From positions 1 through 64,000 of the IMG/VR virus record IMGVR_UViG_3300019458_000005: a stretch of DNA of 64,000 nucleotides, one strand, 5' to 3'. The notes under the pieces were generated by a model that was not told the origin of the DNA, did no database searches, and saw nothing but the letters and a program-made list of their open reading frames with translations. Positions 555 to 44,326 of the stretch are shown here, piece by piece. Each line of letters starts with the position of its first letter. Position 1 is the first letter of the stretch. Made by a program: the position numbers and the translations under genes. Origin of the DNA: a virus.

Positions 555-2999
555 CTACGGGTCTGGCGGGGGCATTTGCGCTGCCTCGTTCTGGAAGTCA
601 GCGCGCTGGAACTGGCCGTTCTCCTTGAGGCGCTGGTAGCGCCACTCGCGCTGTGTGGGCCAGAGGACCAGGTTCGCGAGCATCTGGTTCCGGATCGACT
701 TCGAGGTGGGCGGGTGCTTCGAGGTGGAGATCCTGGAGTGACTGACCTGATCCCAGGTCTCCCACTCCACGAGCCCGGCCTTCTCGCACTCCTCGCCGCA
801 CTCCTCGCCGTGCTGGTGGTCGTCCTCGAGCGTGCCCTTCTGGAGGCGGTACTCGGCGGTCATCTGGCTGCGCGTGACCCAGGGCAGGCCTTGGCGGCCG
901 TGCTTGGGACGCGACGAGCCCGTACAGGGCTGGCGGAAGACCTGGTCCATGAAGGCGCAGAACTCGTCCCAGCTGGTATAGAACAGCCCGGCAGCTACGA
1001 CCCGAGGTGAGAGGTAGGCCACCCGCACGCGGTCCATGACCTCGTCGAGCGAGAGCATCCGCGCGTTCTGCCGGACGGTCTCGCTCATGTGCTCGAGGAG
1101 CGCCGTGCAGGTGTTGTCGTCGTCATGGGTGACCAGGTACATCACGAACCGATCAGGGCCGCGGGTCGCAGTCAGCCAGCGGAAGGCGAGCTTCTTGCTC
1201 ATCTGGTTCGCCTTCTTCCAGGCCCACAGCTCCTTCCGGGTCTTGAACTCCGGGCTCTCGATCCAGAGGAATCGCTTGTGTCCCTCCCACTTCTTCCGTA
1301 GGCAGGCGATCAGCATGTCTGAGTAGAAGACCGCGCATGGGATGCACGGGAGCCGGTCGCAGGGCCAGGAGCGGTACTTCCCCGGGCCGTGCGAGCTGCA
1401 GGTCCTGCGCGTGAACGTGCCACAGGGCTGCATCTCCTCGAGCGTCTTGCGGTACCTGTGGTCGACCGGACACTGCGGGTTGTCGCCGCGGCAGTACTGT
1501 TCGGATTGCCTCTGCATCGCCGAAGCCCCGTCGGAGGTCTTGGTGGGCAGGAGCTGACGGATGACATCCTTGAGGTCTAGTCCAGGGAGCTCCTTCTTGC
1601 GGTCCTGGTAGTAGGCCTGCGCGAGCTCGAGCAAGAACGAGCCCCCGTAGAAGAAATCGCGCAGGATCTTGCTCTTTCCACCCAGACGGACGCCGCTTCC
1701 TCCGCGCTTCAAGGCCTCGATGTCACGGGAGATCATGCTCCAGCTGTCGGCCGCCTTCAGGTCGAAGCTCTTGTAGACGACGTGCTGAACCTGGCGCGAC
1801 GATAGACGCAGTTGTCCGTGCAGGAGTCGGGCCGTACACATGCGTAGAAGGTGACGCTGGTCCGGAGACGAAGGCATGAAGCTGCGGTAGACCTCAGCGA
1901 CGTTCGTGAACTTGCACTTGTCGATGCCAGCGGCCAGTCGCTCCTCGACCTCGCTCTTGGGGCGAGCAATTCGGTTGCGCGCAGACTCCCGAGATCTCGC
2001 TTCGGCGATCAGTCCAGGCCTGCCGATCGCGGCCTGCTGGGTCTCGAACAGCCGCTCCCCGCGGGTCACGAGATCCTTTTGGATCGGGCTGCCCATGAGC
2101 GGCTCGCCTTCGAGGCGGGTCTTCCTGTGGACCTTCTCCTTATGGAGGCCTCCATCGGGCCGGAACATGCCGCCACGACCAGCGGCGCTCTTGTTCAGGT
2201 TCGAGAGGTCGACGGCTCCGAATTGTTGGCCGTGCGGATCGTCAGAGAAGACCCAGAACTCGTAGCTGGGCTTGGTGGAGACCCTTCTCTTCTTTGTTCC
2301 GGGTTTGTCGTCGTCGTCGTCCTTGTCCTTTTCGAGATCTGGCTGCGGAATGCGCGGCTGGAGTCCGATCTTCTGCATCACGTCGCGGCAGTAGCCCAGC
2401 ATGCAGCGCAGGAGTTCGGGCGTTTCTGCGCCTGGCTCGCATGGACCGAACTCTCCGTGGAAGCGTGGCGCTTCTGGCTTTCCGGATCTGCACCAACGCA
2501 GCCTGAATCCGTCGGCGCCCACAACGTCGTTGATCAACGACATCACGCGCTCCGCGCGCGGGAAGTCTTTCATGTCCAGATCGAATCCCGGCGCCGTCAA
2601 GCGCGGGATGTTGGTCATGAACTCCCTGTGCTCTTCTGATTCTGGAGTTCCTTTGTATAGTTTGTTGTCGTCAAGGAAGACGAACCTGGACAGTGACTTT
2701 TCGTCCGCGATGACTCCGTAGTCGTAGACTTGGCCTAGTACGTGGGCATCGCCCACGGACTCGCCCGTCTCCTCGATCACGATCTTGTTGCTGGAACAGT
2801 AATGGTCTGAGAGTACATCCACGTGATTGTCAGCGAACGTGGGGACCCAGCGCGCCCACTTAGAATCAGGGACCAATTGTGCGCGGACCCGCAGAGGGGC
2901 GTGGTCTCGGTTCTTGGCCTTGCGGTACTCAGCCCAGCGGGCCTTGAAGGCCTCGATGTCCTCTTGGGTCCAGAGCGCAGGCACGCGGGTGGTGTTCAT
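555..2999 (-). CDS. large Cys-rich hypothetical protein (814 aa); candidate replication-associated protein
   Basis: Long ORF. Start set at ATG 2999 (MNTTRVPALW), which forms an ATGA overlap with the stop of the upstream 90-aa ORF. Contains an acidic DKDDDDDK linker and a C-terminal Cys/His cluster (CRGDNPQCPVDH..CSSH..CDRLPCIPC). No family recognised. Confidence 0.6.
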   Translation of the reverse strand: MNTTRVPALWTQEDIEAFKARWAEYRKAKNRDHAPLRVRAQLVPDSKWARWVPTFADNHVDVLSDHYCSSNKIVIEETGESVGDAHVLGQVYDYGVIADEKSLSRFVFLDDNKLYKGTPESEEHREFMTNIPRLTAPGFDLDMKDFPRAERVMSLINDVVGADGFRLRWCRSGKPEAPRFHGEFGPCEPGAETPELLRCMLGYCRDVMQKIGLQPRIPQPDLEKDKDDDDDKPGTKKRRVSTKPSYEFWVFSDDPHGQQFGAVDLSNLNKSAAGRGGMFRPDGGLHKEKVHRKTRLEGEPLMGSPIQKDLVTRGERLFETQQAAIGRPGLIAEARSRESARNRIARPKSEVEERLAAGIDKCKFTNVAEVYRSFMPSSPDQRHLLRMCTARLLHGQLRLSSRQVQHVVYKSFDLKAADSWSMISRDIEALKRGGSGVRLGGKSKILRDFFYGGSFLLELAQAYYQDRKKELPGLDLKDVIRQLLPTKTSDGASAMQRQSEQYCRGDNPQCPVDHRYRKTLEEMQPCGTFTRRTCSSHGPGKYRSWPCDRLPCIPCAVFYSDMLIACLRKKWEGHKRFLWIESPEFKTRKELWAWKKANQMSKKLAFRWLTATRGPDRFVMYLVTHDDDNTCTALLEHMSETVRQNARMLSLDEVMDRVRVAYLSPRVVAAGLFYTSWDEFCAFMDQVFRQPCTGSSRPKHGRQGLPWVTRSQMTAEYRLQKGTLEDDHQHGEECGEECEKAGLVEWETWDQVSHSRISTSKHPPTSKSIRNQMLANLVLWPTQREWRYQRLKENGQFQRADFQNEAAQMPPPDP

Positions 3000-3268
3000 G
3001 CGTACCCTCCCCACGCGCCGTTGTCTCTCGCCCATTCCATCAGTTCTTCGTACGTGAACTCATCGAGTGCGTTGCCGTAGCAGGTCGCGAACGAAACTGG
3101 GTCCAGGTCCCAGGCCTCATCGATGGCCTGGATGTAGGTCTTTCTTTCTGACCTGTCTATGTAGGAGATGTAGGCCGCCACACAAGACAACTCTTGGATG
3201 GTGCGGTCTTTCTGAGGGATGCCTTTTGGTTTGAAGTTTGCGGCCTGGCGGGTAGCCCTCACGGGCAC
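2996..3268 (-). CDS. hypothetical protein (about 88-90 aa)
   Basis: ORF track. GGAGG lies immediately upstream, so the real start may be the second GTG at 3262. The stop overlaps the next start (ATGA). Confidence 0.5.
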   Translation of the reverse strand: MPVRATRQAANFKPKGIPQKDRTIQELSCVAAYISYIDRSERKTYIQAIDEAWDLDPVSFATCYGNALDEFTYEELMEWARDNGAWGGYA

Positions 3269-3357
3269 CTCCCCGTGAAACTATGGCTTGACAGGTTCTG
3301 ATCGGTTGGAATACGCTCTGGCACGTCAGCACCTCCGATGCTGGCGCCTTTGATCGA

Positions 3358-3382
3358 GGGCCACCGAGTTCAGGCGGTGGCC
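3358..3382. terminator. GC-rich hairpin downstream of the HTH gene
   Basis: GGGCCACCG-agttcag-CGGTGGCCC: 9-bp perfect stem, about 50 nt after the stop at 3432. No clear U-tract. Confidence 0.4.
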
Positions 3383-3431
3383 CTCAACCTGTACGCGCAG
3401 AACCATCGTTACCTGCTGGACCCACCGTTCG

Positions 3432-3746
3432 TCAACAGGCTTCGTTGGCTAGCTTCGCAAGTCCAGTAGCCAGCGTCGCGAGCGCTTCCTGGTGGATCAG
3501 ATTCGGGACGCTTCGTCCGTGGAACCAGTTCAGCACGGACGCGTCCGTGACGCCCAGCGCTCGAGCCACCGCGGCCGCTGAAGTCTGCCCCACCAGCCGC
3601 CACACGAGCTCCCTGGAGGCTCGCGTCCAGCGCTTCCGGTGACGCTTGGGCCGCGAGCAGCTGCGTGAGCATGCGAGTTGGGTCAGCTCCCAGGGCCGGA
3701 GTATGACCCCGCATGAGCACACGATCTCGCGCTTGAGCCGGGCCAT
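3432..3746 (-). CDS. helix-turn-helix DNA-binding protein (104 aa)
   Basis: Internal ATG of the 256-aa ORF at 3746 (MARLKREIVCSCG...) overlaps the DUF1643 stop (TGATG). HTH-like segment TSAAAVARALGVTDASVLNWFHGRS. The longer N-terminal extension is Arg/Gly/Pro junk overlapping the DUF1643 gene. Confidence 0.6.
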   Translation of the reverse strand: MARLKREIVCSCGVILRPWELTQLACSRSCSRPKRHRKRWTRASRELVWRLVGQTSAAAVARALGVTDASVLNWFHGRSVPNLIHQEALATLATGLAKLANEAC

Positions 3747-4735
3747 CAGTCCGGGTCCATGCCGCCTTCGTCGGCCGCTCGAGCCTCGTCGTCCTCGTCC
3801 GAACAGCCACGGCAGCCGCGGAACAGCGCTCCGGCCGTCTCCTTGACGTGGATGGCCGCCACCCGCTTCTCGTTGGTCTTCTTGTCCTTGCTTCCCCAGC
3901 AGCGCTCCCCCGGGGGCGGGTCGAGCTCGAGCGAGCGGCTCGAGCGAGTGAGCCGGATCTGGCTCTTGCCGACCTTCTTCAGGGTCACGACCTCGACTAC
4001 GTGACCGGCGCGGCCGTCGGCCCAGAGGCCTGAGACCCACTCCACCCGGACCTGCGCCCAGGGGTGCCAGGCCGCGTTGTTTCCGCCGTCGTTGAACTTG
4101 GTCCAGGCCAGGTCGCCGACCTCCCACACGTCCGGGCGCGGACGCTGCTCGGTGGGCTGCTTGGCCGGCCGCTCGGGAAACAGGTCCTTGGTCTGTTCCC
4201 AAAGGACCTCGGCGTTGGTCTTGGGCTTGGGCGGAGCTTTCCTGGGCTCGTACGGCTCCGGATTGGTGTCCTTGGCCAGATAGAGCGGGTGCTTGGGCGT
4301 GCCGTCCTTGTTGCGGCCCAAGCAGCGTACCCGAGCTCCAGCCTCCTCGAGGATCTTCTCGACCTGGTCTGAGCGGTTACGAACGGTAGCGATCGTGCCC
4401 CATGCCGCGAGGACGGCACGGCCTGCGCAGGCCTCGCGGAGGACCCGGTCGTTCTCAGGTCCGATGGCTCGCTCGAGCAGGTCGCACTTGAGCAGCTGGA
4501 GGAGCTCCTTGGGGTCGGTAGCCCGGTAAGCGAATGCGTTGACCTTGAGCAGTCCGCCGTAGCCCCACAGCTGCGCGAAGCCGATCTCGCGGGTCACGGT
4601 AGGGTCGTTTTTCTTCTCGTCGGCCGTGCTGGGATTCAGGCCGATCACCACCAGGACCGGCTTGCTCTCGTCCCAGATGCGCGTGAGCGAGTAGCGCCAG
4701 ATCCTACAGGGAGAAAACATCGCGTTGGAATACAC
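3746..4735 (-). CDS. DUF1643 domain protein with ~150-aa C-terminal extension
   Basis: RYSLTRIWDE..LVVIGLNPSTAD..DPTVTREIGFA..GYGGLLKVNAFAYRATDP..AAWG..GTPKHPLYL matches the DUF1643 signature as I remember it. GTG start directly follows the SNF2 stop. Confidence 0.8.
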   Translation of the reverse strand: MYSNAMFSPCRIWRYSLTRIWDESKPVLVVIGLNPSTADEKKNDPTVTREIGFAQLWGYGGLLKVNAFAYRATDPKELLQLLKCDLLERAIGPENDRVLREACAGRAVLAAWGTIATVRNRSDQVEKILEEAGARVRCLGRNKDGTPKHPLYLAKDTNPEPYEPRKAPPKPKTNAEVLWEQTKDLFPERPAKQPTEQRPRPDVWEVGDLAWTKFNDGGNNAAWHPWAQVRVEWVSGLWADGRAGHVVEVVTLKKVGKSQIRLTRSSRSLELDPPPGERCWGSKDKKTNEKRVAAIHVKETAGALFRGCRGCSDEDDEARAADEGGMDPD

Positions 4736-7099: not shown

Positions 7100-7557
7100 G
7101 GCTTGGCCGTCTCCTTGGCCTCGAGCTCCGCGATCTCGCGCTGGAGGTACCACGCGGCCTTGCGCAGGTCGTCGAGCGTCGACTCGCCCGGCTTGAGGCC
7201 GGCGCGGCAGATGTACTTCAGCGCGGAGCCCAGGCAGAAGCCTAACTTCCAAGCCACGATGACCTTGATCGCTTCGTAGGGGTTGTCGGCTCCTCCGTAG
7301 TGGGCCGGATGGTCTACCTTTTCTGCTGTGTCACGCTTCTCGATGAACGACAGCAACTGAGCATGAATCAGCTCAGCGGGTTTGCGTTTCAGGCACTCCT
7401 GGCAGGTGACCGCTTCCCACACTTGAGTGAGGCTTTCTGCCAGAGAGGACCCGCAGATTGTGATGGGATAAGACGGAATCCCTATCTGCGGGATCTGGTG
7501 ATTTAGTTCCGGGTGCTGGTAGTGAGTTCCGGCTCCAGGTCCAGAGTATTGTGTCAC
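7096..7557 (-). CDS. DUF3310 domain protein
   Basis: HPAHYGGADNPYEAIKVI..LGSALKYICRAGLK..DLRKAAWYLQREI matches the DUF3310 signature from memory. GTG 7557 forms a GTGA overlap with the upstream stop. Confidence 0.75.
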   Translation of the reverse strand: MTQYSGPGAGTHYQHPELNHQIPQIGIPSYPITICGSSLAESLTQVWEAVTCQECLKRKPAELIHAQLLSFIEKRDTAEKVDHPAHYGGADNPYEAIKVIVAWKLGFCLGSALKYICRAGLKPGESTLDDLRKAAWYLQREIAELEAKETAKP

Positions 7558-8198
7558 GCGCCCTCCTCGACCTGATCCCAGATCCACAGCTCACGCGAGA
7601 GGCTCTTGCCGGACCGGTCGATCTTGACTGACCACCGGGTCAGCTCGCGCCACTCGCGGACTGATCCGGTCTCCTTGTTCTTCTTCTGATGTTTGTTCCA
7701 GCTCCACACCTCGAGCCGGTTGCCGCACCTGAGCCAGGCCATTACCTCCGAGTCCTGGAGCTCGAGCAGCTGGTCGATCTTTTTCCGCCGGGCCGCGGAG
7801 TCGCTTGAGCTGCTGGTCGCCTGGATGCCCAGCACACCCGCGTATCCCGGACAGATCTGGTTGCCGATCTGAACCGACTTGAGATTCGAGTCGTCGTCCT
7901 GCAGCACCACCAGGTCGATGCACCCGAACAGATCGATGGTCGTCTGGTCGCGCCAGTTGCCGTGAGCTTGTCGTCCTCCGAAGTGGATCCGGCGCTCGAC
8001 GATCCCGGCGTGCCAGCCGCGCTTCTTACACTCCGCGAGCGCGGCCTTGGTCGCCGAGAACTTGGTCTTTCGCGCCGGCTTGGCCGCCTTCTCGTGCGGG
8101 GCGTCGGTGTCGCTATGGAGGTAGAGCCCGGCGCACTGAGACTCGTGGTCTGTGCGCAGGCCTGCCGCAACCCCGCAGTTGCAGGCTGCGAGCTTCAC
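7554..8198 (-). CDS. hypothetical protein; possible PD-(D/E)xK-type nuclease/resolvase
   Basis: GW..GIVERR..TIDLFGCIDLVVL..LGIQATS resembles the E..D..D/E.K-like core of Hjc/VRR-NUC-type nucleases. The match is weak. GTGA-coupled start. Confidence 0.35.
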   Translation of the reverse strand: MKLAACNCGVAAGLRTDHESQCAGLYLHSDTDAPHEKAAKPARKTKFSATKAALAECKKRGWHAGIVERRIHFGGRQAHGNWRDQTTIDLFGCIDLVVLQDDDSNLKSVQIGNQICPGYAGVLGIQATSSSSDSAARRKKIDQLLELQDSEVMAWLRCGNRLEVWSWNKHQKKNKETGSVREWRELTRWSVKIDRSGKSLSRELWIWDQVEEGA

Positions 8199-8425
8199 TG
8201 GGTTGGTCTTTCGAGCTCGGACTCTATCGTGAGGGCGCAGGCCAACGCCTCGATGATCTGCGGGTCGTTTGCCTTATTCTTGCCCAGACGGATGCGCTCG
8301 TCGACCCAGTGGCGGATGGTCGACGGCGCAGCCGCGTCCCGGCCCAGGAGCACGAACAGCATCTCGTCCTCGCGGGCGCGGTTGAGGCAGCTGGTCGGAT
8401 AGGTTACTTCGTCGGTTTTGCGCAT
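8195..8425 (-). CDS. hypothetical protein (76 aa)
   Basis: ORF track. GGAG 7 nt upstream of ATG 8425. Confidence 0.55.
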   Translation of the reverse strand: MRKTDEVTYPTSCLNRAREDEMLFVLLGRDAAAPSTIRHWVDERIRLGKNKANDPQIIEALACALTIESELERPTQ

Positions 8426-8434
8426 GATGGTCTC

Positions 8435-9742
8435 CTACTTCTCGGTGATGTCTTGCGAGCCACGCCGGTCACTCCACGTGTCCGGCGACATGTCGTGATG
8501 CATGGCGATCCCAGGCACGGCCTGTTTGATCGCCTCGCCCATCTGCTGGGCGACCGCGCGGAGGGTCGGGTGGACGGTTTTCCCCGAGCGCAGCTCGGCG
8601 ATGTAGACCGCCGAGGGCAGCGTGCAGGACATGACGATTGGCACCTGGAGCCCCATAGGCAGGTAGTACTGTCGGGTCTTCGGGTCTTCGCGCTCGAGCC
8701 ACTTCGAGACGCTGTTCAGCGATTTCTGAGCGGAGGCTGTGATCGCCGGAGGCAATTGCTCCAGGTACCAGGGGTGGAAGCCCCACTCGGGCCGGAGGAG
8801 CGGCATTCCTTGCACGCTCGAGCGCTGCCGCTGCAGGTCGCGGTAGCTACCGAAGTCGAGCATGAACTCGAACACGAGGTGGCCGAACATTCGGAAGCGT
8901 TGGTGGAGCTCGGTTCTAGGAGGCCTGGTTTGGAGAAGGATGCGTCGCTTGGGGTCCTTGTCGAGCTCGGCGAGCAAGTTGACGCACTCGAACTCGTATG
9001 GCCTGTTTTTGAGGCAATCCGGCGTCCAGTAAGCGAACTGATCCATGCTGTCGAGCAGGTACTGGCACTGCTCGTCCGAGAGCGTCTGGCCGAAGCTCGA
9101 CGGGTAGCGCTCCATGAGCTCGCTGCGCATCTGAATAGCCAACTGCTCGACCTCGTGGAGTGGGTGGTGGCGGAGCTCCTCGAGGTGGTCGTGAGCCTGT
9201 CGGAGGTTCGTGGTCCAGGCCACGTTGGTGCTGGCTCCAGCCGGCAGGAGCGCACGACAGATGTCGAACGTGCGCGCGTTGATGGCCTTCTGGTGGACTT
9301 CCGGCTTGATGTCGTCCGGGCAGGGGTGCTTGAGCTTTAGGACCTCTCGCACGCGCTCTTGGGCCTCCGTGTAGAGCTCGCGCCAGGTGTCCTGGATCTG
9401 CGTTCCGCGCTCCGTGCCTAGCGGGTTCAGGAACTCTACGGTGCTCATGTCCATGTAGCGGGTCGAGGCCTCCTGACCGCTGTAGAGCGGCGTATCCTGG
9501 ATGGCCTTGGCGGCGAGCATGGAGACACCCTCGAAGAACATCGCGATGTGCCCGCAGTCGCCGATGCTCTTATGTCCGTAGCCGATATAAAACCGCTCGT
9601 GGAATGCAGCTGAGCCCCTTTTCTTGACCTGTTCTATATGCTCCGTAACGGTTCTAGGGCTACGTGAATAGAGGGCCATGAGCATGGCCAAGTCTTGCGG
9701 GTTGGGAACGTCACGTCCGTCTAGAACGACGATCTTGGGCAC
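8435..9742 (-). CDS. thyX: ThyX-like (Thy1-domain) flavin-dependent thymidylate synthase homologue, long tandem-domain form
   Basis: GYGHKSIGDCGHIAMFFEGVS..QEASTRY resembles the ThyX core, followed by a second Thy1-like half with YRDLQRQRS where ThyX has RHR. GTG start. The first ~60 codons use A/T-ending codons, unlike the rest. Confidence 0.55.
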   Translation of the reverse strand: MPKIVVLDGRDVPNPQDLAMLMALYSRSPRTVTEHIEQVKKRGSAAFHERFYIGYGHKSIGDCGHIAMFFEGVSMLAAKAIQDTPLYSGQEASTRYMDMSTVEFLNPLGTERGTQIQDTWRELYTEAQERVREVLKLKHPCPDDIKPEVHQKAINARTFDICRALLPAGASTNVAWTTNLRQAHDHLEELRHHPLHEVEQLAIQMRSELMERYPSSFGQTLSDEQCQYLLDSMDQFAYWTPDCLKNRPYEFECVNLLAELDKDPKRRILLQTRPPRTELHQRFRMFGHLVFEFMLDFGSYRDLQRQRSSVQGMPLLRPEWGFHPWYLEQLPPAITASAQKSLNSVSKWLEREDPKTRQYYLPMGLQVPIVMSCTLPSAVYIAELRSGKTVHPTLRAVAQQMGEAIKQAVPGIAMHHDMSPDTWSDRRGSQDITEK

Positions 9743-10736
9743 GCGCTAGCCTCCTGAGTTTACGTGTCATGGTTTTCCAAGAGAGTCGATACCAGTCAGG
9801 TAGGTCGATGTTTTGGCCGCGGTGAATGACCATCAGGCGGAGTCCGTAGCCAGCCGCGACCACGGCTCGACCTTTCGCTCGAACCTGAGCGAAGATGGCT
9901 TGGTCGTAGAAGCCAAGCGTCACGAAACTCTTGACCTCTACTACCTGTGCTGTTGACAGAATGAAGATATCCGGGATGTAGCGACGCGTTCTATTGCGGA
10001 ATCGGTAGCGGAAAGTGGGCTTCCCTTCGGACGCAGTGAAGGCCAGATCATTGGGTTTTGCGCCTTTGGCGAGCAGGAACGCCACGGCCTTTCCTTCGGC
10101 GCCCTGAACCAAGACAGTGCGAGACCCGACCTTGATCGGGCGCCGACGGTACTGGGACGTGTCACACAGCGGACAGCCGTTACCGGATAGCAGCTGATTT
10201 GGTGATGTGCTCCAGATGTGACCTTTCGAGCAGCGATGACGTAGAGGCACGAGCGCGGTGATGTAATGGTCGAGAACGCAAGCGCCAAGGGAACGAGCTT
10301 CGGCGATGTAAGTCTCGTGCGTCTTCCGGCTTCGCGGGCCAATGGTCTCCTCGTAGCATCTACGACAGCCGGACCGCCGGTGAATCACGTTTGCTGGTTT
10401 TGTCTCGAACTCGCCGTGCTTGAAGCAGGTATAGACGAGCTTGATGTTGGCGCCGCGGTAGGTGCCGACGACGCGGAGACGATCGCCGTGGATCTGTCGA
10501 ACTGCCGAGACGTGGTCGTCGTGTTTGGTGCGGTGTCTGTCGTGAGCGCATAGAGCGCAACCATGACCGACCTCGATGTTTGACGCCAGCGCCTTGAAGC
10601 GACCGTGTATTGGGCACTCGTAGGTGACGCGACGGAGCGAGTGCTTGTAGATACTGACTACTGCCAGCGCAGAGCCGTGCCGAAGCTGGACCCTGCGGAG
10701 GTGTTCATTGTGGGTTTTGGTCATGTCATTACCAGC
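9550..10736 (-). mobile_element. free-standing homing-endonuclease cassette including a foreign-looking 5' tract of thyX
   Basis: Visibly lower G+C and A/T-ending codons from about 9550 to 10736. The tract contains the endonuclease ORF and the first ~60 codons of the ThyX-like gene. A displaced native 5' copy lies just upstream (10737-10868). Confidence 0.5.
9711..10724 (-). CDS. homing-endonuclease-like protein (three zinc-ribbon repeats plus PD-(D/E)xK core)
   Basis: Three repeats of Y/H.C..HG.F......G.GC..C (YECPIHGRF..GHGCALC, YTCFKHGEF..RSGCRRC, HRCSKGHIW..GNGCPLC). C-terminal YIPDIF..VVEVKS. Low-GC codon usage. The 3' end overlaps the thyX start by 32 nt. Confidence 0.55.
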   Translation of the reverse strand: MTKTHNEHLRRVQLRHGSALAVVSIYKHSLRRVTYECPIHGRFKALASNIEVGHGCALCAHDRHRTKHDDHVSAVRQIHGDRLRVVGTYRGANIKLVYTCFKHGEFETKPANVIHRRSGCRRCYEETIGPRSRKTHETYIAEARSLGACVLDHYITALVPLRHRCSKGHIWSTSPNQLLSGNGCPLCDTSQYRRRPIKVGSRTVLVQGAEGKAVAFLLAKGAKPNDLAFTASEGKPTFRYRFRNRTRRYIPDIFILSTAQVVEVKSFVTLGFYDQAIFAQVRAKGRAVVAAGYGLRLMVIHRGQNIDLPDWYRLSWKTMTRKLRRLARAQDRRSRRT

Positions 10737-10868
10737 TTAGCCAACGCAAGCACTGACCTTCTCGAGGTGCTCGGTCACCGACTTCGGACTGCGCGAGTAA
10801 AGCGCCTGGAGCATCGCCAGATCCTCGGGGCTAGGCACGTCGCGACCATCGAGCACGATGAGCTTCAC
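10737..10868 (-). pseudogene. displaced 5' fragment of the ThyX-like gene (43 codons then stop)
   Basis: VKLIVLDGRDVPSPEDLAMLQALYSRSPKSVTEHLEKVSACVG*. 28 of 37 aligned residues are identical to residues 3-39 of the intact gene (PKIVVLDGRDVPNPQDLAMLMALYSRSPRTVTEHIEQV). It is written in GC-rich codons. GTGA-coupled to the upstream gene. Confidence 0.7.
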
Positions 10869-11098
10869 GCGTCGTCGTCCTTCACGTAGTTGCTTCCCGA
10901 GTCGCAACCCGAGTTACAGAGAGCCCCTGACCGGATCGCGTCGGTCAGCCGGCCGAGAGCGATCAGTAATGCGTCCTCCTCGTTGTGGTTGTGCGTAGAA
11001 GTCACTCCGGCTACGAGCTCTCCGTCGATCCTCAGGCTGAGGTCAGCGCGCTTGAGTTTCGTGTCCTTGTAGGTCGCTCCCGAGATCTCGACCTTCAC
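10865..11098 (-). CDS. hypothetical protein (77 aa)
   Basis: GTG 11098 forms a GTGA overlap with the nuclease stop (VKVEISGATYKDTKLKRADLSLRIDG...). Confidence 0.5.
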   Translation of the reverse strand: MKVEISGATYKDTKLKRADLSLRIDGELVAGVTSTHNHNEEDALLIALGRLTDAIRSGALCNSGCDSGSNYVKDDDA

Positions 11099-12441
11099 GC
11101 GTCCCCTCCGTCCTTCTCGCGCACCTCGACCCAGGTGGCCGTGTCGAGCGACTCGTGCCTCTTGAGCTCGTTGAGCGCGAACTGGTTGTTCTTGCAGTAG
11201 GCCAGCGTGGCCTTGCGCTCGAGGCCGTTGGTTCGGACCACGAACTCGTACACGTCTACGCCCATGAGCGTGGGCGTCTTTTCGAGCGCGGTCCAGTGGA
11301 ACCCCGTCAGCGGCCGCCGGCCGATCTTGGCCTTCCACGCTCCCCAGTTGCGCTGGCCGTTGCCCAGCCGCTTCCGGATCTCGCTCGCGACCGCGCTCTT
11401 GATCGAGCCAGCGCTGTCCTGGAGGGTCTTGGCGCGGTGGAACCAGGCGGCCAGTTCCTCGTTGGTCTTGTCCTCGGCCAGCGCGTCGGCGACGGCCAGC
11501 TCGAACGGACTGGCGCCTTCTCTGGGCGTGGGACCCAGGAGGCTCTGCGCGACCCAGCGCGAGCCTTCCTTGCAGCGGAGCACGTAGGGGCACCCCGCGC
11601 AGTGGTCCCCGGTGGTGGCCTTGAGCGCCAGGTCCGGGTTCTGCATGTCCCGCACGATGCGGCGCACCTCCATGATCCCGTAGCCCATGAGCTCGTCGTC
11701 GTAGGGGATCTCGACCACCGCCCGCTCGAGCAGGAAGTAGTAGCGCATCTTGAGCGCGCGCCCCGGCCACATTTCGCGTCCGATCGCGAAGTAGATGAAG
11801 GTCTGAGGGGCGAGCTCGAGCTCGAACTTGCGACGCAGCACGCCGCTCTTGTAGTCGCCGATCACGGTGAACTGATCCTCGATGTCGACGCGGTCCAGGA
11901 CTGCCGCCACCACGACCGGGTTGTCCTTGCTCCCGAGGTTCACGGTGGCCTCGAGCTCGGCCGCCTTGACGTGGGTCATGTCGATCGGAGCCACCAACTT
12001 GATCGCCTCGAGCACGGCGTCGTAGAGGAGCTTGTGCCAGCCCATCGCGTCCGTGAGGTGAGCCAGGTACTTGGTAAGCTCGCGCTTCCCGGCCTTGGGT
12101 GAGTCGAGCACGTGACCGTCGATCCGCACGCGCGCAGCGGCCTCGAGGACCGCGTGGAGCGCGATCCCGATCTCGGACTTGGAGGCCTGCGGTGGGTGCT
12201 TGGGGTCTGCGTCCGCGGGGAGCTCCTGCGGCTCCTGGAGGTGCGACCTCCAGCGGAATGCCCAGCGACGCGGACAATCGCGCCACACGTTGATCTGACT
12301 GACCGAGACCCCGCGCGGCGGCACGAAAGCCTGCGCGTCCCGAGCCAGCTGGCTGGCCAGCTCGGACGTGACTCCGGCTGGTATGGGTGGATCTTCGGCG
12401 GCCTTGAACTCGGTCGAGTCCGCCGGTTTATGAACGCGCAT
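11095..12441 (-). CDS. Cas4/RecB-like PD-(D/E)xK exonuclease
   Basis: C.RRW near the N-terminus, VLDRVDI..VIGDYKSG (D..DYK core), and a C-terminal Cys triad GDHCAGCPYVLRC typical of the Cas4/AddB Fe-S cluster. The alternative 473-aa frame is Arg/Gly-rich junk. Confidence 0.7.
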   Translation of the reverse strand: MRVHKPADSTEFKAAEDPPIPAGVTSELASQLARDAQAFVPPRGVSVSQINVWRDCPRRWAFRWRSHLQEPQELPADADPKHPPQASKSEIGIALHAVLEAAARVRIDGHVLDSPKAGKRELTKYLAHLTDAMGWHKLLYDAVLEAIKLVAPIDMTHVKAAELEATVNLGSKDNPVVVAAVLDRVDIEDQFTVIGDYKSGVLRRKFELELAPQTFIYFAIGREMWPGRALKMRYYFLLERAVVEIPYDDELMGYGIMEVRRIVRDMQNPDLALKATTGDHCAGCPYVLRCKEGSRWVAQSLLGPTPREGASPFELAVADALAEDKTNEELAAWFHRAKTLQDSAGSIKSAVASEIRKRLGNGQRNWGAWKAKIGRRPLTGFHWTALEKTPTLMGVDVYEFVVRTNGLERKATLAYCKNNQFALNELKRHESLDTATWVEVREKDGGDA

Positions 12442-12462
12442 GGTTTGACCTGGAGTGGAAGC

Positions 12463-12530
12463 GCGACCCGCCGCCCGTAGGGCGCAGTCTTGGAAAGTGG
12501 GGACGGAACCCCAACCGAGCGGCGGGTCGC
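12463..12530. other. 12-bp inverted repeat flanking a 44-nt spacer (terminator or regulatory structure)
   Basis: GCGACCCGCCGC (12463-12474) and GCGGCGGGTCGC (12519-12530), between the SSB-like stop and the nuclease start. Confidence 0.3.
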
Positions 12531-29253: not shown

Positions 29254-30890
29254 CCCAGCCTCGCCCAGTCGTCGCAGCGGCCATGCGTTCGATCTACGCG
29301 CCTCCAGCCACAGCTCACAGCATGGGAGACTTCTTTGACCCGCCGCTCGAGGGGTTGCCCTCGCACCGCCGCAAGGGCGGAGGCGAGGCCGCGCCAGGGT
29401 TCGACTACCGCTGGATCGGCGACAAGGACGTCGGCACCGCCGCCACGATCGACGTGATGAAGAAACTGGCGGTCGACGGGAGCACGCACCCAGGGATCAT
29501 CGCGGCCGCGCAGCGAGTCACGCGTCGCCTCCCTAGCAAGGACTACGAGGCCGAGCTGCGCGCGCTGTTCGAGCTCGTGCGGGAGAACGTGCGCTACAAC
29601 CTCGACCCGCGCGCGATGGAGATGGTCCAACATCCGGCTTACACGATGTTCGTGAGCGGAGTCGGGGACTGCTTCGTGGCCGGGACGCAGGTCCTGCTCA
29701 AGGACGGATACCGCACGATCCCGATCGAGGAGGTGCGAGCTGGGGATCAGATCTGGGGAAAGGACCGCTGGTCTCGCGTCGAGAGGTCCTGGTCCAAGGG
29801 ACGCCTGAGGACCTGGCTCGTTCGGCTGAACAACGGGTCGACCATGCGCCTGACTCCAGACCACAAGGTCTACGTGCTCGATCCTGATTCCGGAGAGGAG
29901 TCGAGGATCACGCTTCGTGAGCTCAGGCCTGGCATGCTGCTCACTCAGCCGGAATCTGTGGCTACCGGGACCGGCGAACAGGACCCGGACATGGCCTACC
30001 TGGACGGGGTCTACCTGTCGGATGGATGGGCCGAGCAGAGCCGGTTCGCGATCTCAGGCAAGGACGGGCACCCGAAAGAGGAACAGAAGCGTAGGGTGCA
30101 GGGGATCTGCTCCCACCGTGGGATCCGTACCAGGTGGGCCAAGAAGTACATCTCGATCCTAGATCGTGATCTCGCCCAGCGCATGCTGAGTATGGGCAGT
30201 AGGGCCTTCAACAAGAAGGCGCTCACAATTGACCTCGAACCGCTCGCCTCCACGCAGCTCCTGTCCGGGATCATGGCCGACTCTGGGCGGAACACTTCCA
30301 GAAAGGAGGCTGAGCTACTAGCTTCGGATCAAAACCTCACAGGCAGGACGTTCACGACCACGTCCTACGCTTTGGCTCTCCAGGTGAGAATTCTCCTCAA
30401 ACAGCAGGGAATCAGCTGCGGAGAGAGCTACGTGCCTGACCATGGAGGCGAGGGTACGCATCCGATCTGGCGACTCCAAACGAGACTTCGTGAGCATGAG
30501 ACCAAAACGCATGTCAAGCGGCTCAAGGTGGTCGAGATCATTCGCGACAACGACCCGCGCGAGTGTTTCGACATCTCCACGGACGACCACTACGTGTGGT
30601 TGCCGCAGGCCGACTGGACGGTCTCGAACTGCGACGATAGCGCGGTCCTCCTGGCCGCCCTCTCGATGGCCGCCGGACACGGCGCGCTCTACCGCACGAT
30701 CCGCACCGACCCGCGTCGCATGGACGAGTTCAGTCACGTCTACCCGCTCCTGGGCTACCGCAACAAGGACGGCGCGTTCTGGTTCTCAAGCGACGTAACC
30801 CACCCGCGCCCCGAAGACGCGCGCTGGGGCTGGGAGGCCCCGCAGGAGGTCCGCTACGGCACGGCCGACTGGATGGTCGCGGGGGTCTAG
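29250..30890 (+). CDS. transglutaminase-like cysteine protease interrupted by an intein
   Basis: The extein reads ..YTMFVSGVGD|CDDSAVLLAALSMAAGHG..FSHVYP..FWFSSDVTHP (Cys-His-Asp transglutaminase-core pattern) once residues 141-460 are removed. Confidence 0.7.
   Translation: MTQPRPVVAAAMRSIYAPPATAHSMGDFFDPPLEGLPSHRRKGGGEAAPGFDYRWIGDKDVGTAATIDVMKKLAVDGSTHPGIIAAAQRVTRRLPSKDYEAELRALFELVRENVRYNLDPRAMEMVQHPAYTMFVSGVGDCFVAGTQVLLKDGYRTIPIEEVRAGDQIWGKDRWSRVERSWSKGRLRTWLVRLNNGSTMRLTPDHKVYVLDPDSGEESRITLRELRPGMLLTQPESVATGTGEQDPDMAYLDGVYLSDGWAEQSRFAISGKDGHPKEEQKRRVQGICSHRGIRTRWAKKYISILDRDLAQRMLSMGSRAFNKKALTIDLEPLASTQLLSGIMADSGRNTSRKEAELLASDQNLTGRTFTTTSYALALQVRILLKQQGISCGESYVPDHGGEGTHPIWRLQTRLREHETKTHVKRLKVVEIIRDNDPRECFDISTDDHYVWLPQADWTVSNCDDSAVLLAALSMAAGHGALYRTIRTDPRRMDEFSHVYPLLGYRNKDGAFWFSSDVTHPRPEDARWGWEAPQEVRYGTADWMVAGV
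29670..30629 (+). mobile_element. intein (320 aa) with LAGLIDADG homing-endonuclease domain
   Basis: Starts CFVAGTQVLLKDG. Block B is LTPDHKV. LAGLIDADG-like motifs YLDGVYLSDGW and LLSGIMADSG. Ends DHYVWLPQADWTVSN followed by the +1 Cys. The central part has lower G+C. Confidence 0.75.
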
Positions 30891-41362: not shown

Positions 41363-42277
41363 ATGCGGAATGCTTCATCGGATCATAGGGCTCGCCGCGC
41401 CAGTCGTGACTCGGATCGCGTGCAGGAGGCCCAGGAGGCCGTCCGACGCGGGGACATCCAGCGCTACATCGAGCTCCGCGCCGGCTACGACAAGCCGTTC
41501 GGGGTATGGGCGCGTTGGGCGGCCAACTTCGGCGATCCGGTGTGTCGTGCGGCGCTGCCGGTTGAGCACGAGTGGCTGGAGTGGGCTCACGAAGAGAGCT
41601 TCAACAACGTCGGAGACGGCAGGGCGCGCTGGCCTGAGCGCGGACACAGGCCCAAGCGTGGGCGCAACCCATCTTGGCCTTTGACTCTGTACCAGATCCG
41701 CAGTCGTGCTGGGACCTGGAAGAAGCCAGAAGGTTGGAGCCTGTTCGAGTCCGGCGAACACGGCCTCGAGATCGAGCGAGACGACGACGATACAGACTTC
41801 AAGTACGACGACGACGCGCAGCAGTTCGTGTTCGATCGCGCTTGCGAGGGAAGCGTCTTGCACCTCTCGGCGCTCCTGTGGGTGCGGCTCTACCACTACC
41901 TGTTCTCGGTGGACAGTATTCAGACGCTTAGGGTTCTGTATTCGGACGTAGCGACCGCTGAAACTCTGCAGAGTCTATATCCGGACGGAGGTCCAGCTGA
42001 GCACGCACGACTCGCTGAACAAGCTGAGCTCCTGAGGCCTAGTCCGGTGATTTACTACGACGAGATCTACTCATCTCGGTTCGGCAGAACGTTTCAGCCG
42101 GCACTAACGTCCTACGGTCTTATGCTCGAACACCTCAAGAACGACAAGATTGGCACCGGAGTCGCTCCAGAAGCCTACCTGGTCGAGCGTTTCTTCTGGA
42201 ACGCGGTCCTCGAGTCCGCGCCGCCCTACACAGCAGCTCAAGCCGGCGCGCTGCGCCGCGAGAACGGATGGTGGTAA
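41363..42277 (+). CDS. hypothetical protein, member of the RN(A/P)..D.R.RRA.R-leader family
   Basis: Starts MRNASSDHRARRASRDSDRVQEAQEAVRRGDIQRYIELRAG. Confidence 0.65.
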   Translation: MRNASSDHRARRASRDSDRVQEAQEAVRRGDIQRYIELRAGYDKPFGVWARWAANFGDPVCRAALPVEHEWLEWAHEESFNNVGDGRARWPERGHRPKRGRNPSWPLTLYQIRSRAGTWKKPEGWSLFESGEHGLEIERDDDDTDFKYDDDAQQFVFDRACEGSVLHLSALLWVRLYHYLFSVDSIQTLRVLYSDVATAETLQSLYPDGGPAEHARLAEQAELLRPSPVIYYDEIYSSRFGRTFQPALTSYGLMLEHLKNDKIGTGVAPEAYLVERFFWNAVLESAPPYTAAQAGALRRENGWW

Positions 42278-44326
42278 GTGAAGTCTCGCGTGCAGGTCTC
42301 GCAGCTCACGGGTCGTTCGCACTTAGACCACTGGGCGGTGTGCCAGGTGCCGATCATCAAGGGTGGCTACATGCCGAACCCGCCCCGCCAGCTGCCGGTC
42401 GCTCCCGGGGGGCTCGTGCCTCTCGAACAGGTGCCTCTCGCGCCCAAGACGAAGTTCCGGCGCCCTCCCTGGAATGGCTGCGTGATCTACGAGGGGCCCA
42501 GCCTGATCACCGGCAAGCCGATCGTGGCTATCGCGATCGGCTTCCAGGACGGGAGCGAGAACCGGAAGACCGGACCCATGATCCAAACGTTCATCCTCTG
42601 CGCTGATATGCCTCCACAGGAGGCGATCGACACCGGCGCAGACGACGCGATCTGCGGGGAGTGCCCGGCTCGCGGGGTCGGAATCGCGCCTCTCGAGCGA
42701 CCGCGTCCGCGCGCCTACCGGAAGCGCGGCTCGGGCTGGGAGCACGGAGAGGGCGTCGGTCAGGCCTGGCAAGCGCCTGAGGGGCGGTTCTGCTACGTGG
42801 TCGTGGCGCAGTCGCCCACGAACGTGTGGTGGAAGTACTGGAACGGCGGCTACCCGCGCGTGAGCCTCCAGGAGCTCGCCTACTACACCTGGGGACGTAA
42901 CGTGCGCTTCGGGACCTACGGAGACCCGGCCGCCGTACCCACCGAGGTGTGGGCGACGATGGCCGAGTCCGCCAACTACGTGCTCGCCTACACCCATCAG
43001 TGGCGGCTGCCCAGCGCGCAGCCGCTGCGGCAGTGGGCCATGGCCTCCACCAACAGCGAGGAGGATCTGCGCGAGGCCACCGCCATGGGCTGGCGCTCGT
43101 TCCGGATGCTCAAGGCCGGCGAGCAGCTGGTTCCTGGGATCGAGATCACCTGCCCGGCCAGCGACGAGCACGAGGAGAAGAAGGGCAAGAAGGCGAAGTG
43201 CATCGAGTGCCGCAGCTGTCAGGGTCTCGCTTCGAAGTCGCGCCGAAGCGTCGCGATTCGCGAGCACGGCTACCTGGTCGATCCAGGAGGCCGGAAGAAG
43301 CGCACACGGAGGGAGAAGGAGAACCCCGACGAGGACCTGCGCGCGCTCGAGCGCCGCGTTCAGCTCGGTGATCAGGAGGCCTTGGCGCGCCTCCAGGCTG
43401 CGCAGCTCCGCAGCGGCGTTCGGCAGCCCCAGCGCAAGTATCTGATAGACCTGGCTGGCGAAGTCCTGGGTGAGATCGGCGGCGCGGGGCTGGCCTCGCG
43501 CTCGGACTACCTGGACCGGAAGATCCACGCGGCCGCCATCAAGGCCGTGCTCAAGCAGATCGGAGTCAAGGCGAGCGTGACCACGCCCAATTACGCCTGG
43601 GCGAGCTCGGTAGAGATCAAGTCGGCGCGCAAGGTTCCTGGTTGGCTCGGAGAACCGACCCACGACCACCTGAACTTCGACGAGTCGCGCACGATCTGGG
43701 ACGCCTTCGGACTCGAGTCGTGGGAAGAGCCCAAGGAAGAGCGACGCGCGAATTGGCGCGGAATGCAGAACTTCTCGCTCTACCCCAACGCGCGCGAGGA
43801 CCGCTCGGACCCGCGCACAGACTACTTCAGTCCCGGCGGTCCGCGTCTCCGAGAGGACCTGTGGGATGTCTACAAGGCCGCTTTGCGAAAGGAGCTGGCC
43901 AAGCCGCCCCGAGCCAAGAAGCCCAAGAAGCAGAACCCGTGGGTCAGCGGCTCGGACGGGATCCCGGAGAACGTTCGGGCTCACGTCGAGCTCACCGACG
44001 CGGACGGGATCCCCTACTGGCGCTACGCGATCGGAGAGGGTCAGCTGGCGGAGCTCGACGACGAGGACCCGCTCATGCAGAACTACGAGGAGATCGAGGG
44101 CGTGCTCCGCTCCCACCTCGAGGCCGCCGTGGCGTTCGGAGCTTCTCACCCGCACGACGGGAGCGTGCCTCACCCACGAACCGGAGACATGGCTCACTTC
44201 GCGATCGGCAACAGGCGCTGGGCCACGATGGTCACGATGTACGAGCCGGGAGTGATCAAGCTGGGCACGTTCCCAGAACGAGGGAACCCGCGCCGCCCGA
44301 GCCGCAGGAAGCGCGGCCGTCGGTGA
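42278..44326 (+). CDS. mosaic protein: N-terminal Cys-rich conserved phage domain plus internal leader-type module plus C-terminal domain
   Basis: ICGECPARG..CYVVV..FGTYGDPAAVP..YTHQW..MAS..CPAS..CIECRSCQG block. Internal ENPDEDLRALERRVQLGDQEALARLQAAQLRSG at 43319-43417. Ends RGNPRRPSRRKRGRR. Confidence 0.7.
   Translation: MKSRVQVSQLTGRSHLDHWAVCQVPIIKGGYMPNPPRQLPVAPGGLVPLEQVPLAPKTKFRRPPWNGCVIYEGPSLITGKPIVAIAIGFQDGSENRKTGPMIQTFILCADMPPQEAIDTGADDAICGECPARGVGIAPLERPRPRAYRKRGSGWEHGEGVGQAWQAPEGRFCYVVVAQSPTNVWWKYWNGGYPRVSLQELAYYTWGRNVRFGTYGDPAAVPTEVWATMAESANYVLAYTHQWRLPSAQPLRQWAMASTNSEEDLREATAMGWRSFRMLKAGEQLVPGIEITCPASDEHEEKKGKKAKCIECRSCQGLASKSRRSVAIREHGYLVDPGGRKKRTRREKENPDEDLRALERRVQLGDQEALARLQAAQLRSGVRQPQRKYLIDLAGEVLGEIGGAGLASRSDYLDRKIHAAAIKAVLKQIGVKASVTTPNYAWASSVEIKSARKVPGWLGEPTHDHLNFDESRTIWDAFGLESWEEPKEERRANWRGMQNFSLYPNAREDRSDPRTDYFSPGGPRLREDLWDVYKAALRKELAKPPRAKKPKKQNPWVSGSDGIPENVRAHVELTDADGIPYWRYAIGEGQLAELDDEDPLMQNYEEIEGVLRSHLEAAVAFGASHPHDGSVPHPRTGDMAHFAIGNRRWATMVTMYEPGVIKLGTFPERGNPRRPSRRKRGRR

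Follow-up and report, generated by a model that had tools for sequence, protein, structure and literature searches.

Why would a phage carry the start of its thyX gene twice, with a nuclease gene lodged between the two copies? The question is raised by a 64,000-nucleotide stretch of viral DNA (positions 1 to 64,000 of IMG/VR virus record IMGVR_UViG_3300019458_000005, hereafter the window), which belongs to a phage genome of ∼81.7 kb and 66% GC. On the minus strand, a 43-codon open reading frame (ORF) resembling the N-terminus of ThyX, termed here the stump, is followed by a gene of the homing-endonuclease type and then by an intact thyX, and all three elements lie where a preliminary description of this DNA had placed them (Table 1). 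The best explanation for the arrangement is probably a recurrent homing cassette that replaces the 5′ end of thyX, and it is near-certain that the copy in the window belongs to a recurrent cassette family. In the best model, the segment from 10739 to ∼9572 is a homing cassette of ∼1.17 kb, inserted between thyX codons 54 and 55. Read along the minus strand, this cassette would consist of a stop codon, a short spacer, the free-standing homing endonuclease gene (HEG), a ribosome-binding site located in the 3′ end of the HEG, and thyX codons 1–54 in frame with the resident gene body.

Two Diverged 5′ Ends of thyX

The stump ORF (product VKLIVLDGRDVPSPEDLAMLQALYSRSPKSVTEHLEKVSACVG, followed by a stop) starts at a GTG that shares bases with the TGA of an upstream 77-aa gene (GTGA), and it thus retains the translational coupling of the resident thyX to that gene. 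Its residues 2–38 are identical to ThyX residues 3–39 at 28 of 37 positions (tblastn E ∼5e-16), which reproduces the resemblance originally reported for this coupled 43-codon ORF. Across the 37 aligned codons, the stump and the working copy share 6 identical codons and differ synonymously at 22 and non-synonymously at 9; divergence this rich in synonymous changes indicates that the copies have long been separate and do not stem from a recent in-place duplication.

The two copies also differ in composition. The GC content at third codon positions (GC3) is 31/37 (0.84) in the stump, versus 22/37 (0.60) for the same codons of the working thyX. Along the locus, GC3 is 0.66 in the HEG, 0.61 in thyX codons 1–54, 0.86 in the rest of thyX, and 0.84 in the thyX-like part of the stump; the difference between the HEG (overall GC 0.582) and the thyX body is significant (Fisher p = 2e-10). 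The compositional breakpoint proposed within thyX in the preliminary description is real and lies near 9571: the maximum-likelihood GC3 change point falls at codon 57, with values of 0.60 before and 0.865 after it (permutation p = 0.0005). As a control, the GC3 of the first 57 codons minus that of the rest was calculated for 41 high-GC3 ORFs of the window. This difference averages -0.06 (sd 0.11), and thyX, at -0.27, is the third most extreme; the two ORFs beyond it are judged to be longest-ORF calls with starts extended upstream of the real gene.

A comparison of an occupied with an empty site bears on which of the two 5′ ends is native. Locus L015, which has the HEG and comes from the same phage as L009, and locus L006, which lacks the HEG, are collinear, with ∼74% nt identity over 8 kb. 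The L006 thyX 5′ end has two alignments to L015, one with the stump, stopping precisely where the stump does, and one with the working thyX start. Relative to this L006 sequence, the stump is identical at 85% (nt) and 88% (aa), versus 67% (nt) for the working 5′ end. In 39-nt intervals, the identity of the working gene to L006 is 0.67, 0.77, 0.72, and 0.51 up to codon 54 and then rises to 0.90 and 0.87, while that of the stump is 0.72, 0.90, 0.85, and 0.95. The stump has a higher GC3 than the working 5′ end in all stump loci measured (0.84/0.60, 0.88/0.75, 0.81/0.69, and 0.94/0.73). For the window, third-position identity to the HEG-less L006 is 0.70 in the stump, 0.54 in the thyX body, and 0.35 in the working 5′ end, and at the DNA level its cassette-borne 5′ end is matched best by the HEG-linked 5′ ends of L010 and L009. 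A search of 90% protein clusters for a form of the window's phage without the HEG yielded identical copies from sister samples and nothing else. These comparisons support, from sequence, the identification of the stump as the resident thyX start and of the working 5′ end as foreign DNA that arrived with the endonuclease. The preliminary description had argued both points, and they now draw on the empty site, GC3, and GTGA coupling for the stump, and on GC3 and the jump in identity after codon 54 for the working end.

The short ORF might alternatively be a functional small gene or leader peptide that merely resembles the ThyX N-terminus, or a local tandem duplication unrelated to the nuclease. 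It does, after all, have a start codon and an uninterrupted frame, is coupled to the upstream gene, ends 12 nt before the ATG of the HEG, and is called as a gene in every assembly. However, it occurs only alongside the HEG, is missing at 4–5 HEG loci, varies in length and suffers deletions, and the empty-site comparison identifies it as the original gene start; the synonymous differences at 22 of 37 codons, together with the difference in GC3, exclude a recent local duplication. We consider this explanation highly improbable, and the ORF is clearly not an independent conserved gene unrelated to thyX, the finding that the preliminary description had named as fatal to its proposal.

The Endonuclease and Its Family

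The ORF between the two thyX ends is predicted to encode a 337-aa protein with three zinc-ribbon DNA-binding repeats (CapR/DUF723/DUF4379 type) and a C-terminal PD-(D/E)xK nuclease domain (DUF7487; D252, E263, and K265). Pfam searches detect DUF7487 (52.5 bits, cut-off 27) and the treble-clef zinc finger DUF4379 (29.1 bits, cut-off 24.5), with CapR (23.1 bits, cut-off 24.2) and DUF723 (17.5 bits, cut-off 20.9) narrowly below threshold, and the PHROG matches are endonuclease families 681 and 559. Three C..H...CxxC units lie N-terminal to the nuclease domain, where an internal repeat is also detected by tblastn, and three structurally repeated zinc-ribbon units are present in the AlphaFold2 model (predicted local distance difference test score, pLDDT, 90). 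The P251-D252 ... E263-V264-K265 motif is invariant in an alignment of 17 homologs. In a Foldseek search of the PDB with the whole multi-domain model, the top matches are RecE, Cas4 SSO0001, PA endonuclease, Hjc, and Vsr, all of them weak (E ≥ 0.009, TM ≤ 0.43); the profile of the HEG alignment has no match among PDB sequences. The earlier assignment of this inserted, lower-GC ORF to the homing-endonuclease type is borne out by DUF7487, DUF4379, the three zinc-ribbon units, and the invariant D...EVK, and in silico the protein joins an endonuclease to a DNA-binding module, as is characteristic of free-standing HEGs.

The gene lies outside any intron or intein: it is a separate ORF in a frame different from that of thyX, and thyX is complete without splicing. 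A group I intron or other ribozyme was considered and rejected, since positions 8000–12500 of the window have no Rfam match at E ≤ 1. The last 32 nt of the HEG overlap the thyX start in a different frame, such that the conserved C-terminal AQDRR of the nuclease is an out-of-frame reading of the thyX (M)PKIVV, and the AGGAGG of thyX lies within the nuclease gene (conserved in L009). Because its 3′ end both overlaps the thyX start and contains the thyX ribosome-binding site, the nuclease gene must take at least the start of thyX along whenever it moves.

A search of ∼5.8 billion proteins yielded 17 close relatives of the nuclease (50–70% identity). The closest annotated homolog from an isolate phage is the “MutH/Vsr/archaeal HJR-like endonuclease” of Pseudomonas phage PaBG (29% identity), and the relatives recovered from 185,579 bacterial and archaeal genomes reach only 29–32% identity, which gives no hint of the host. 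In a neighbor-joining tree of the nucleases (no support values), the window, L009, L010, and L054, all of which bear stumps, form one clade.

Recurrence of the Nuclease, the Stump, and the Junction

The nuclease gene is situated directly upstream of a thyX-family gene in 11 of 11 distinct contexts read (L009/L015, L010, L011, L012, L013/14/16, L046, L047, L050/51, L052, L053, and L054), and it overlaps the thyX start wherever that start was mapped; the L048 contig stops within the nuclease gene, and its downstream gene lies off the contig. In L046 (4034–6537), where there is no stump, the family member is a 430-aa protein with one extra N-terminal zinc-ribbon repeat, and it adjoins a divergent 404-aa Thy1-domain protein (Pfam 3.8e-10) rather than the usual 430-aa ThyX type. 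The distribution of the HEG at this locus is patchy, as L005, L006, and 35 of 38 IMG/VR thyX loci have no insertion upstream of thyX (the IMG/VR loci were found with an alignment query, after a single-protein query had found nothing).

By tblastn with the ThyX N-terminus, a stump precedes the nuclease in eight lineages (the window, L009/L015, L010, L011, L013/14/16, L048, L054, and, in a variant form, L053), with lengths that range from 43 to ∼63 codons and deletions in some. The stumps of L009, L010, L011, L013, and L054 share the end ...YY[T/V]G, which corresponds to thyX codon 54 and precedes the invariant YGHKSIGDCG motif. At this junction (marked by a slash), L009, L010, L011, and L013, which represent three to four phage lineages besides that of the window, read codon 54 GGC/TAG GCTGG[C/T]AA..., and the window reads GGC/TAA GCTGG; L054 has TAA TGTGG at the same position. 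In the window, stump codons 44–54 are missing through a 33-nt deletion between two GGCT repeats, which left ...GTT GGC TAA GCTGG. Alignment with the stumps of L009, L010, L011, L013, and L054 makes this deletion visible and the GGC/TAA GCTGG junction is kept. After the last stump GGC, the window continues with TAA GCTGGTAA, and its spacer between the stump stop and the ATG of the HEG is 12 nt long, ∼27 nt shorter than in L009, L010, L011, and L013. The spacers of L009 (3222–3262; GTAGC..GCTAC) and of L010 and L011 (3897–3937; CGTAGCT..AGCTACG) contain a short inverted repeat that is deleted in the window and might serve the cassette in regulation or binding.

No stump is found at the HEG loci L012, L046, L047, L050, and L052, where a sensitive, permissive search for degenerate stumps gave noise alone, and the nuclease in stump-less loci is an ordinary free-standing gene ahead of thyX. 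Where stumps are present, the genes upstream of them differ between lineages: the one strong match is that of the expected L009–L006 pair, and the upstream gene of L013 is only distantly similar to those two.

Evidence for Movement of the Cassette

Two related phages from different samples, L010 and L011, provide evidence that the cassette moves. Most of their aligned flanks are ∼5–10% divergent, whereas between 3893, the first base past the stump, and 5125 there is 1 difference in 1233 nt. This near-identical block comprises the spacer, the whole nuclease gene, and thyX to ∼22 nt past the boundary between codons 54 and 55; the stumps on one side of it are 89% identical, and the thyX bodies on the other differ by roughly 10–20%. 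Together with the GC3 change point in the window, this pair exhibits the co-transfer of flanking sequence with sharp recombination boundaries that is expected of a HEG. A second block of near-zero divergence in the pair, upstream of the stump (2101–3600), includes an HTH_3 gene, and a very divergent island of 290 nt (3601–3892), which holds the stump, separates it from the identical cassette.

Taken together, the sequences make evident an insertion between codons 54 and 55, an in-frame replacement start, a stump ended by the stop codon of the cassette, and the loss of the uninterrupted target from the invaded genome. Since the junction is common to several lineages, the closest relatives have the order stump, HEG, and thyX, and a near-identical cassette lies between diverged flanks, the 54 foreign codons belong to the cassette itself and are not an incidental co-conversion tract. 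The preliminary description had called them such a tract; the foreign origin of the codons stands, while true co-conversion past the insertion point covers only ∼3 codons in the window.

According to the same description, the upstream side had been resolved illegitimately in an event private to this genome. In full, this alternative is a one-off homing of an intergenic HEG into this phage, with homologous repair in thyX on one side and, on the other, a chance illegitimate join that left the native 5′ end behind. It would account for the breakpoint and the diverged duplicate, both of which are real; stump-less relatives with a plain free-standing HEG (L012, L047, L050, and L052) make an ancestral event of this kind plausible, and 5 nt of microhomology (GGCTA) are common to the target and the junction. 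Independent illegitimate joins, however, would not hit the same base with the same downstream sequence, and the same junction occurs in the window and in four further sequences (L009, L010, L011, and L013) despite upstream genes that differ or are only distantly similar. L010 and L011 also show precise transfer of the cassette between diverged stumps. The alternative is therefore largely refuted for the window copy, and we regard it as quite improbable; an illegitimate join through microhomology may explain the founding event of the family and is unlikely to explain the copy in the window.

A further alternative is an old, vertically inherited, and immobile arrangement in one lineage, with an inactive or domesticated nuclease and a stump that is a decaying relic. 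The window stump has indeed decayed (the 33-nt deletion) and its spacer is shortened, three or four samples yielded no variant of this phage without the HEG, and the nearest cassette is only 70% identical. Against these points, the ORF is intact with all catalytic and zinc-ligand residues that are invariant in the family, and the cassette GC3 of 0.60–0.66 has not drifted to the 0.86 of the genome, even in the 54 codons that form part of an expressed gene. The presence of the HEG is patchy with respect to how similar the thyX bodies are, in that the L009 thyX body is 77% identical to the HEG-less L006 and only 71% to the HEG-bearing L010, and the L010 and L011 cassettes are near-identical. An immobile relic thus appears unlikely. 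Over all locus pairs, the correlation of identities among the HEG, the 5′ end, and the body (r = 0.32–0.47) is uninformative, as 52 residues resolve too little.

Several observations weigh against a recurrent homing cassette as the explanation. The zero-divergence block at 2101–3600 in L010 and L011 implies that mosaic exchange unrelated to the nuclease occurs in these phages. The closest sampled cassette is 70% identical in the HEG protein, with no recent donor known, and no HEG-less relative of the window's phage was found (the closest thyX is 58% identical), so that the native status of the stump is direct for the sister element and compositional only for the window. The GC3 control for 5′ ends is noisy, with dips in several other ORFs; the structural matches to PD-(D/E)xK nucleases are weak (best E = 0.009); and the nuclease tree, which has no support values, groups the stump-bearing L013 with the stump-less L012. 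The target site is a prediction drawn solely from the insertion point. Finally, L053 and L054 lack the FHE-versus-FM signature discussed below, so that the idea of immunity codons is not general.

Proposed Mechanism of Spread

During co-infection, the nuclease would cut an uninvaded thyX at or near ...TTC ATG nnn CAG TAC TAC ACC GGC/TAC GGN CAC AAG AGC ATC GGC GAC TGC GG (slash, insertion point). The break would then be repaired from the cassette-bearing genome, with the donor thyX body serving as the right homology arm and the donor stump as the left; the comparative data are consistent with this route, and the role of the stump as an arm seems somewhat more probable than the contrary. With the stump and the thyX body as arms, spread would require thyX only, and not common neighboring genes. 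Repair of this kind would explain why the junction is precise and common, why a sharp left edge is combined with a co-conversion tract that is short on the right, and why the cassette has spread among phages whose upstream genes differ. Resident codons 1–54 would be displaced upstream, severed by the stop codon of the cassette, and kept as the stump, from which codons 44–54 would later have been lost in the window.

The invaded thyX would continue to work, since the cassette evidently brings a new start and its own ribosome-binding site. The invaded genome, in turn, would be immune, as the target is split and cassette codons 44–54 (FHERFYIG) differ from the target type (FMxQYYxG). A contribution of these codons to immunity is speculative; an FHE[RK]FYVG signature is present in five loci (the window, L009, L010, L013, and L047) and absent in L053 and L054. 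It may further be speculated that the stump feeds ribosomes to the nuclease gene by termination-reinitiation across the 12-nt gap. The stump-less configuration is probably ancestral, and the self-sufficient form could have been created by a founding insertion into a phage without upstream homology, possibly joined at the GGCTA microhomology.

Other Inserts at the thyX 5′ Region

Elements other than this nuclease family occupy the same region. In L053 (42–1829), nucleases are in tandem ahead of thyX, in the order stump (48–206), a 243-aa ORF (209–940), the PD-(D/E)xK HEG (960–1829), and thyX. The stump ends ...FHENFYVGYG, two codons past the usual junction, and the 243-aa ORF matches PHROG endonuclease and endonuclease VII families (phrog_3322 at 1e-25, and phrog_1035). 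The same thyX region thus seems to be used by a second nuclease family, unrelated to the first and with a junction of its own. L065 (1533–4371) is without the HEG described here and carries a different insert: a 63-aa stump ORF (1533–1724; ends ...GSGKFMS), an unrelated 419-aa ORF (1721–2980), and an intact thyX (2959–4371). Matches to the 419-aa ORF are confined to a C-terminal helix-turn-helix resembling HEG DNA-binding tails, and L065 looks like an independent event by a different element that produced a stump, an insert, and a replacement 5′ end.

From these loci, a broader proposition can be formulated, to which we give even chances. Phages would carry homing cassettes that are self-contained and enter an essential gene at its most conserved stretch with neither intron nor intein, by means of a replacement start and of a stump used as the upstream arm; such cassettes would be independent of gene order and would move between unrelated phages that share only thyX, whose 5′ region would be a hotspot for at least three unrelated inserts (the PD-(D/E)xK family, the EndoVII-like ORF of L053, and the helix-turn-helix-bearing 419-aa ORF of L065).

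Locus Layout and Genomic Context

The features of the locus are listed in Table 1. Independent assemblies contain the same arrangement (the contigs examined were one from Logan and two from ENA, and identical JGI proteins appear in the cluster listing); because independent assemblies carry the same layout, it is not an assembly artifact. In one sister sample (L002), an 81.8-kb contig starts inside the nuclease gene, 159 nt before thyX, and in another (L003), a separate 3.1-kb contig spans the end of the exonuclease gene to the gene after thyX and nothing more. These breaks around the cassette could reflect a mixture of strains with and without the HEG.

Table 1. Minus-strand features of the thyX locus in the window, in gene order.
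Feature	Position	Strand	Remarks
PD-(D/E)xK exonuclease gene	12441–11095	minus	First of five minus-strand genes in order
77-aa gene upstream of stump	10865–11098	minus	Called as gene in L001 and L003
thyX stump ORF, 43 codons + stop	10737–10868	minus	28/37 aa identity to ThyX residues 3–39
Putative resident-derived part of stump	10868–10740	minus	Resident thyX codons 1–43; codons 44–54 deleted
Predicted left end of cassette: stop TAA + spacer GCTGGTAATGAC before HEG ATG	10725–10739	minus	Homologous to L009, L010, L011, L013
TAA ending stump ORF	10739–10737	minus	Attributed to cassette
Free-standing homing endonuclease gene (HEG), 337 aa, predicted	9711–10724	minus	Pfam/PHROG, alignment, AlphaFold2, GC3
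thyX ribosome-binding site AGGAGG	9750–9755	minus	Within HEG 3′ end, 7 nt before GTG at 9742
Putative cassette-borne replacement thyX codons 1–54	9581–9742	minus	GC3 0.61; ends ...FHERFYIG; in-frame fusion between codons 54 and 55
Codons 55–57 (TAC GGA CAT), putative short co-conversion tract	9572–9580	minus	Up to GC3 change point
Putative resident thyX body, codons 58–435	8435–9571	minus	GC3 ∼0.865; starts within invariant YGHKSIGDCG motif
Intact thyX, 435 aa	9742–8435	minus	Pfam Thy1 89.6 bits

The 77-aa upstream gene has neither a Pfam nor a PHROG match, and a megablast comparison of window positions 8000–12500 with isolate phage genomes gave no match. The thyX/HEG region (9401–11100) is the deepest low-GC island of the window, with a minimum GC of 0.545; other islands (400-nt GC <0.60, vs 0.66 overall) occur at 2301–3500, 7201–7700, 30001–30600, and 41701–42300.

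The ThyX protein of the window (PF02511, cut-off 24.8 bits) belongs to a ∼430-aa subfamily with >4000 relatives. Members of this subfamily (P0002–P0120) derive mainly from metagenome-assembled genomes of Patescibacteria, or candidate phyla radiation, and from phage or giant-virus contigs; among isolate phages, it is found only in some Vibrio jumbo phages (33% identity). At residues 304–307 (8820–8831), the window protein has Q-R-Q-R-S, versus Q-R-H-R-S in the subfamily, so that the His of the classical RHRxxS motif is replaced by Gln; the flanking Arg residues and the Ser are invariant.

Significance and Comparison With Known Systems

Besides introns and inteins, the cassette points to a third way for a selfish nuclease to reside in a conserved coding site of a phage gene that still works. 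It is also a compact, testable system, with a predicted target site, a filled and empty pair, and a phage pair with a recent common cassette, and it defines a putatively sequence-specific nuclease family (zinc-ribbon repeats and DUF7487) with a probable long, conserved recognition site. Such genes also bear on annotation and phylogeny: codons 1–54 of thyX have a history separate from that of the remainder, and small upstream “hypothetical” ORFs are gene stumps. A full-text literature search turned up neither a 5′-end-replacing phage cassette nor a thyX-specific HEG family, although such a negative does not prove absence.

Free-standing phage HEGs with intronless homing include SegF and SegG of T4, MobE, and others (reviewed in PMC2988022 and PMC2790892). 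The thyX cassette resembles them in having a stand-alone nuclease beside its target gene, a patchy distribution, co-conversion of flanks, and no intron or intein. Classical members, however, are intergenic, need common sequence to either side, and do not duplicate the target, whereas the thyX cassette inserts within a coding sequence and carries a 5′ end that would rescue gene function. In the nrdA of Aeromonas phage Aeh1, the HEG MobE splits the gene without duplication. “Fractured genes” with split inteins have also been described (PMC2677866). In both cases, as here, a nuclease gene is located within an essential phage gene of nucleotide metabolism. The two gene pieces in those systems reassemble or splice, whereas the thyX locus encodes one complete ThyX, to which the stump is redundant.

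Prophages at tRNA genes, as well as e14 and phage 21 in icd, are integrating elements that carry a replacement gene end; they use site-specific integrases, and it is the 3′ ends that are replaced. Like these elements, the thyX element supplies a substitute terminus that keeps the gene intact and leaves the displaced native end at its other boundary, but its movement would be driven by a nuclease and recombination, and it is the 5′ end that is replaced.

With respect to the protein, CapR, DUF723, and DUF4379 zinc fingers are known DNA-binding modules of phage HEGs in vibriophage ICP1 and its relatives (PMC10448857). The ICP1 zinc-finger HEGs likewise have repeated treble-clef modules fused to a nuclease domain, and their genes lie at recombination boundaries (PMC10448857). 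Their nuclease domain is T5orf172 (GIY-YIG-like), in contrast to the DUF7487 domain of PD-(D/E)xK type predicted for the thyX HEG.

The closest known analogue appears to be the mobile-ORF (mORF) gene hybrid of fungal mitochondria; the cassette would work like such a hybrid, although we do not classify it as one. These hybrids are known for atp6 of Allomyces macrogynus and for atp6, atp9, cox2, and nad3 of Glomus sp., in which a LAGLIDADG or GIY-YIG ORF brings a foreign C-terminus, with the native one left downstream; relatives resemble the native piece more closely, and most differences between the two are synonymous (PMC3630166). Partial duplications of atp6, cob, cox1, and atp9 also adjoin free-standing HEGs (PMC6279837; PMC7487136). 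The thyX locus shares with the mORF hybrids a nuclease ORF inside a conserved gene, an in-frame foreign replacement terminus, and a displaced native terminus retained nearby as an unused copy, and here, too, the native copy is nearer to relatives than the inserted copy, with differences that are mostly synonymous. The differences lie in the nuclease (zinc-ribbon/PD-(D/E)xK), the phage genome, the thyX target, and the polarity, as mORF hybrids replace the 3′ end with the nuclease downstream, and the thyX cassette replaces the 5′ end with the nuclease upstream. The thyX cassette must therefore supply a ribosome-binding site and a start codon, and its stop terminates the stump. Replacement of a gene end by a mobile nuclease has hitherto been documented mainly as 3′-end replacement in fungal mitochondria, and the thyX cassette would be its 5′ counterpart in phages.

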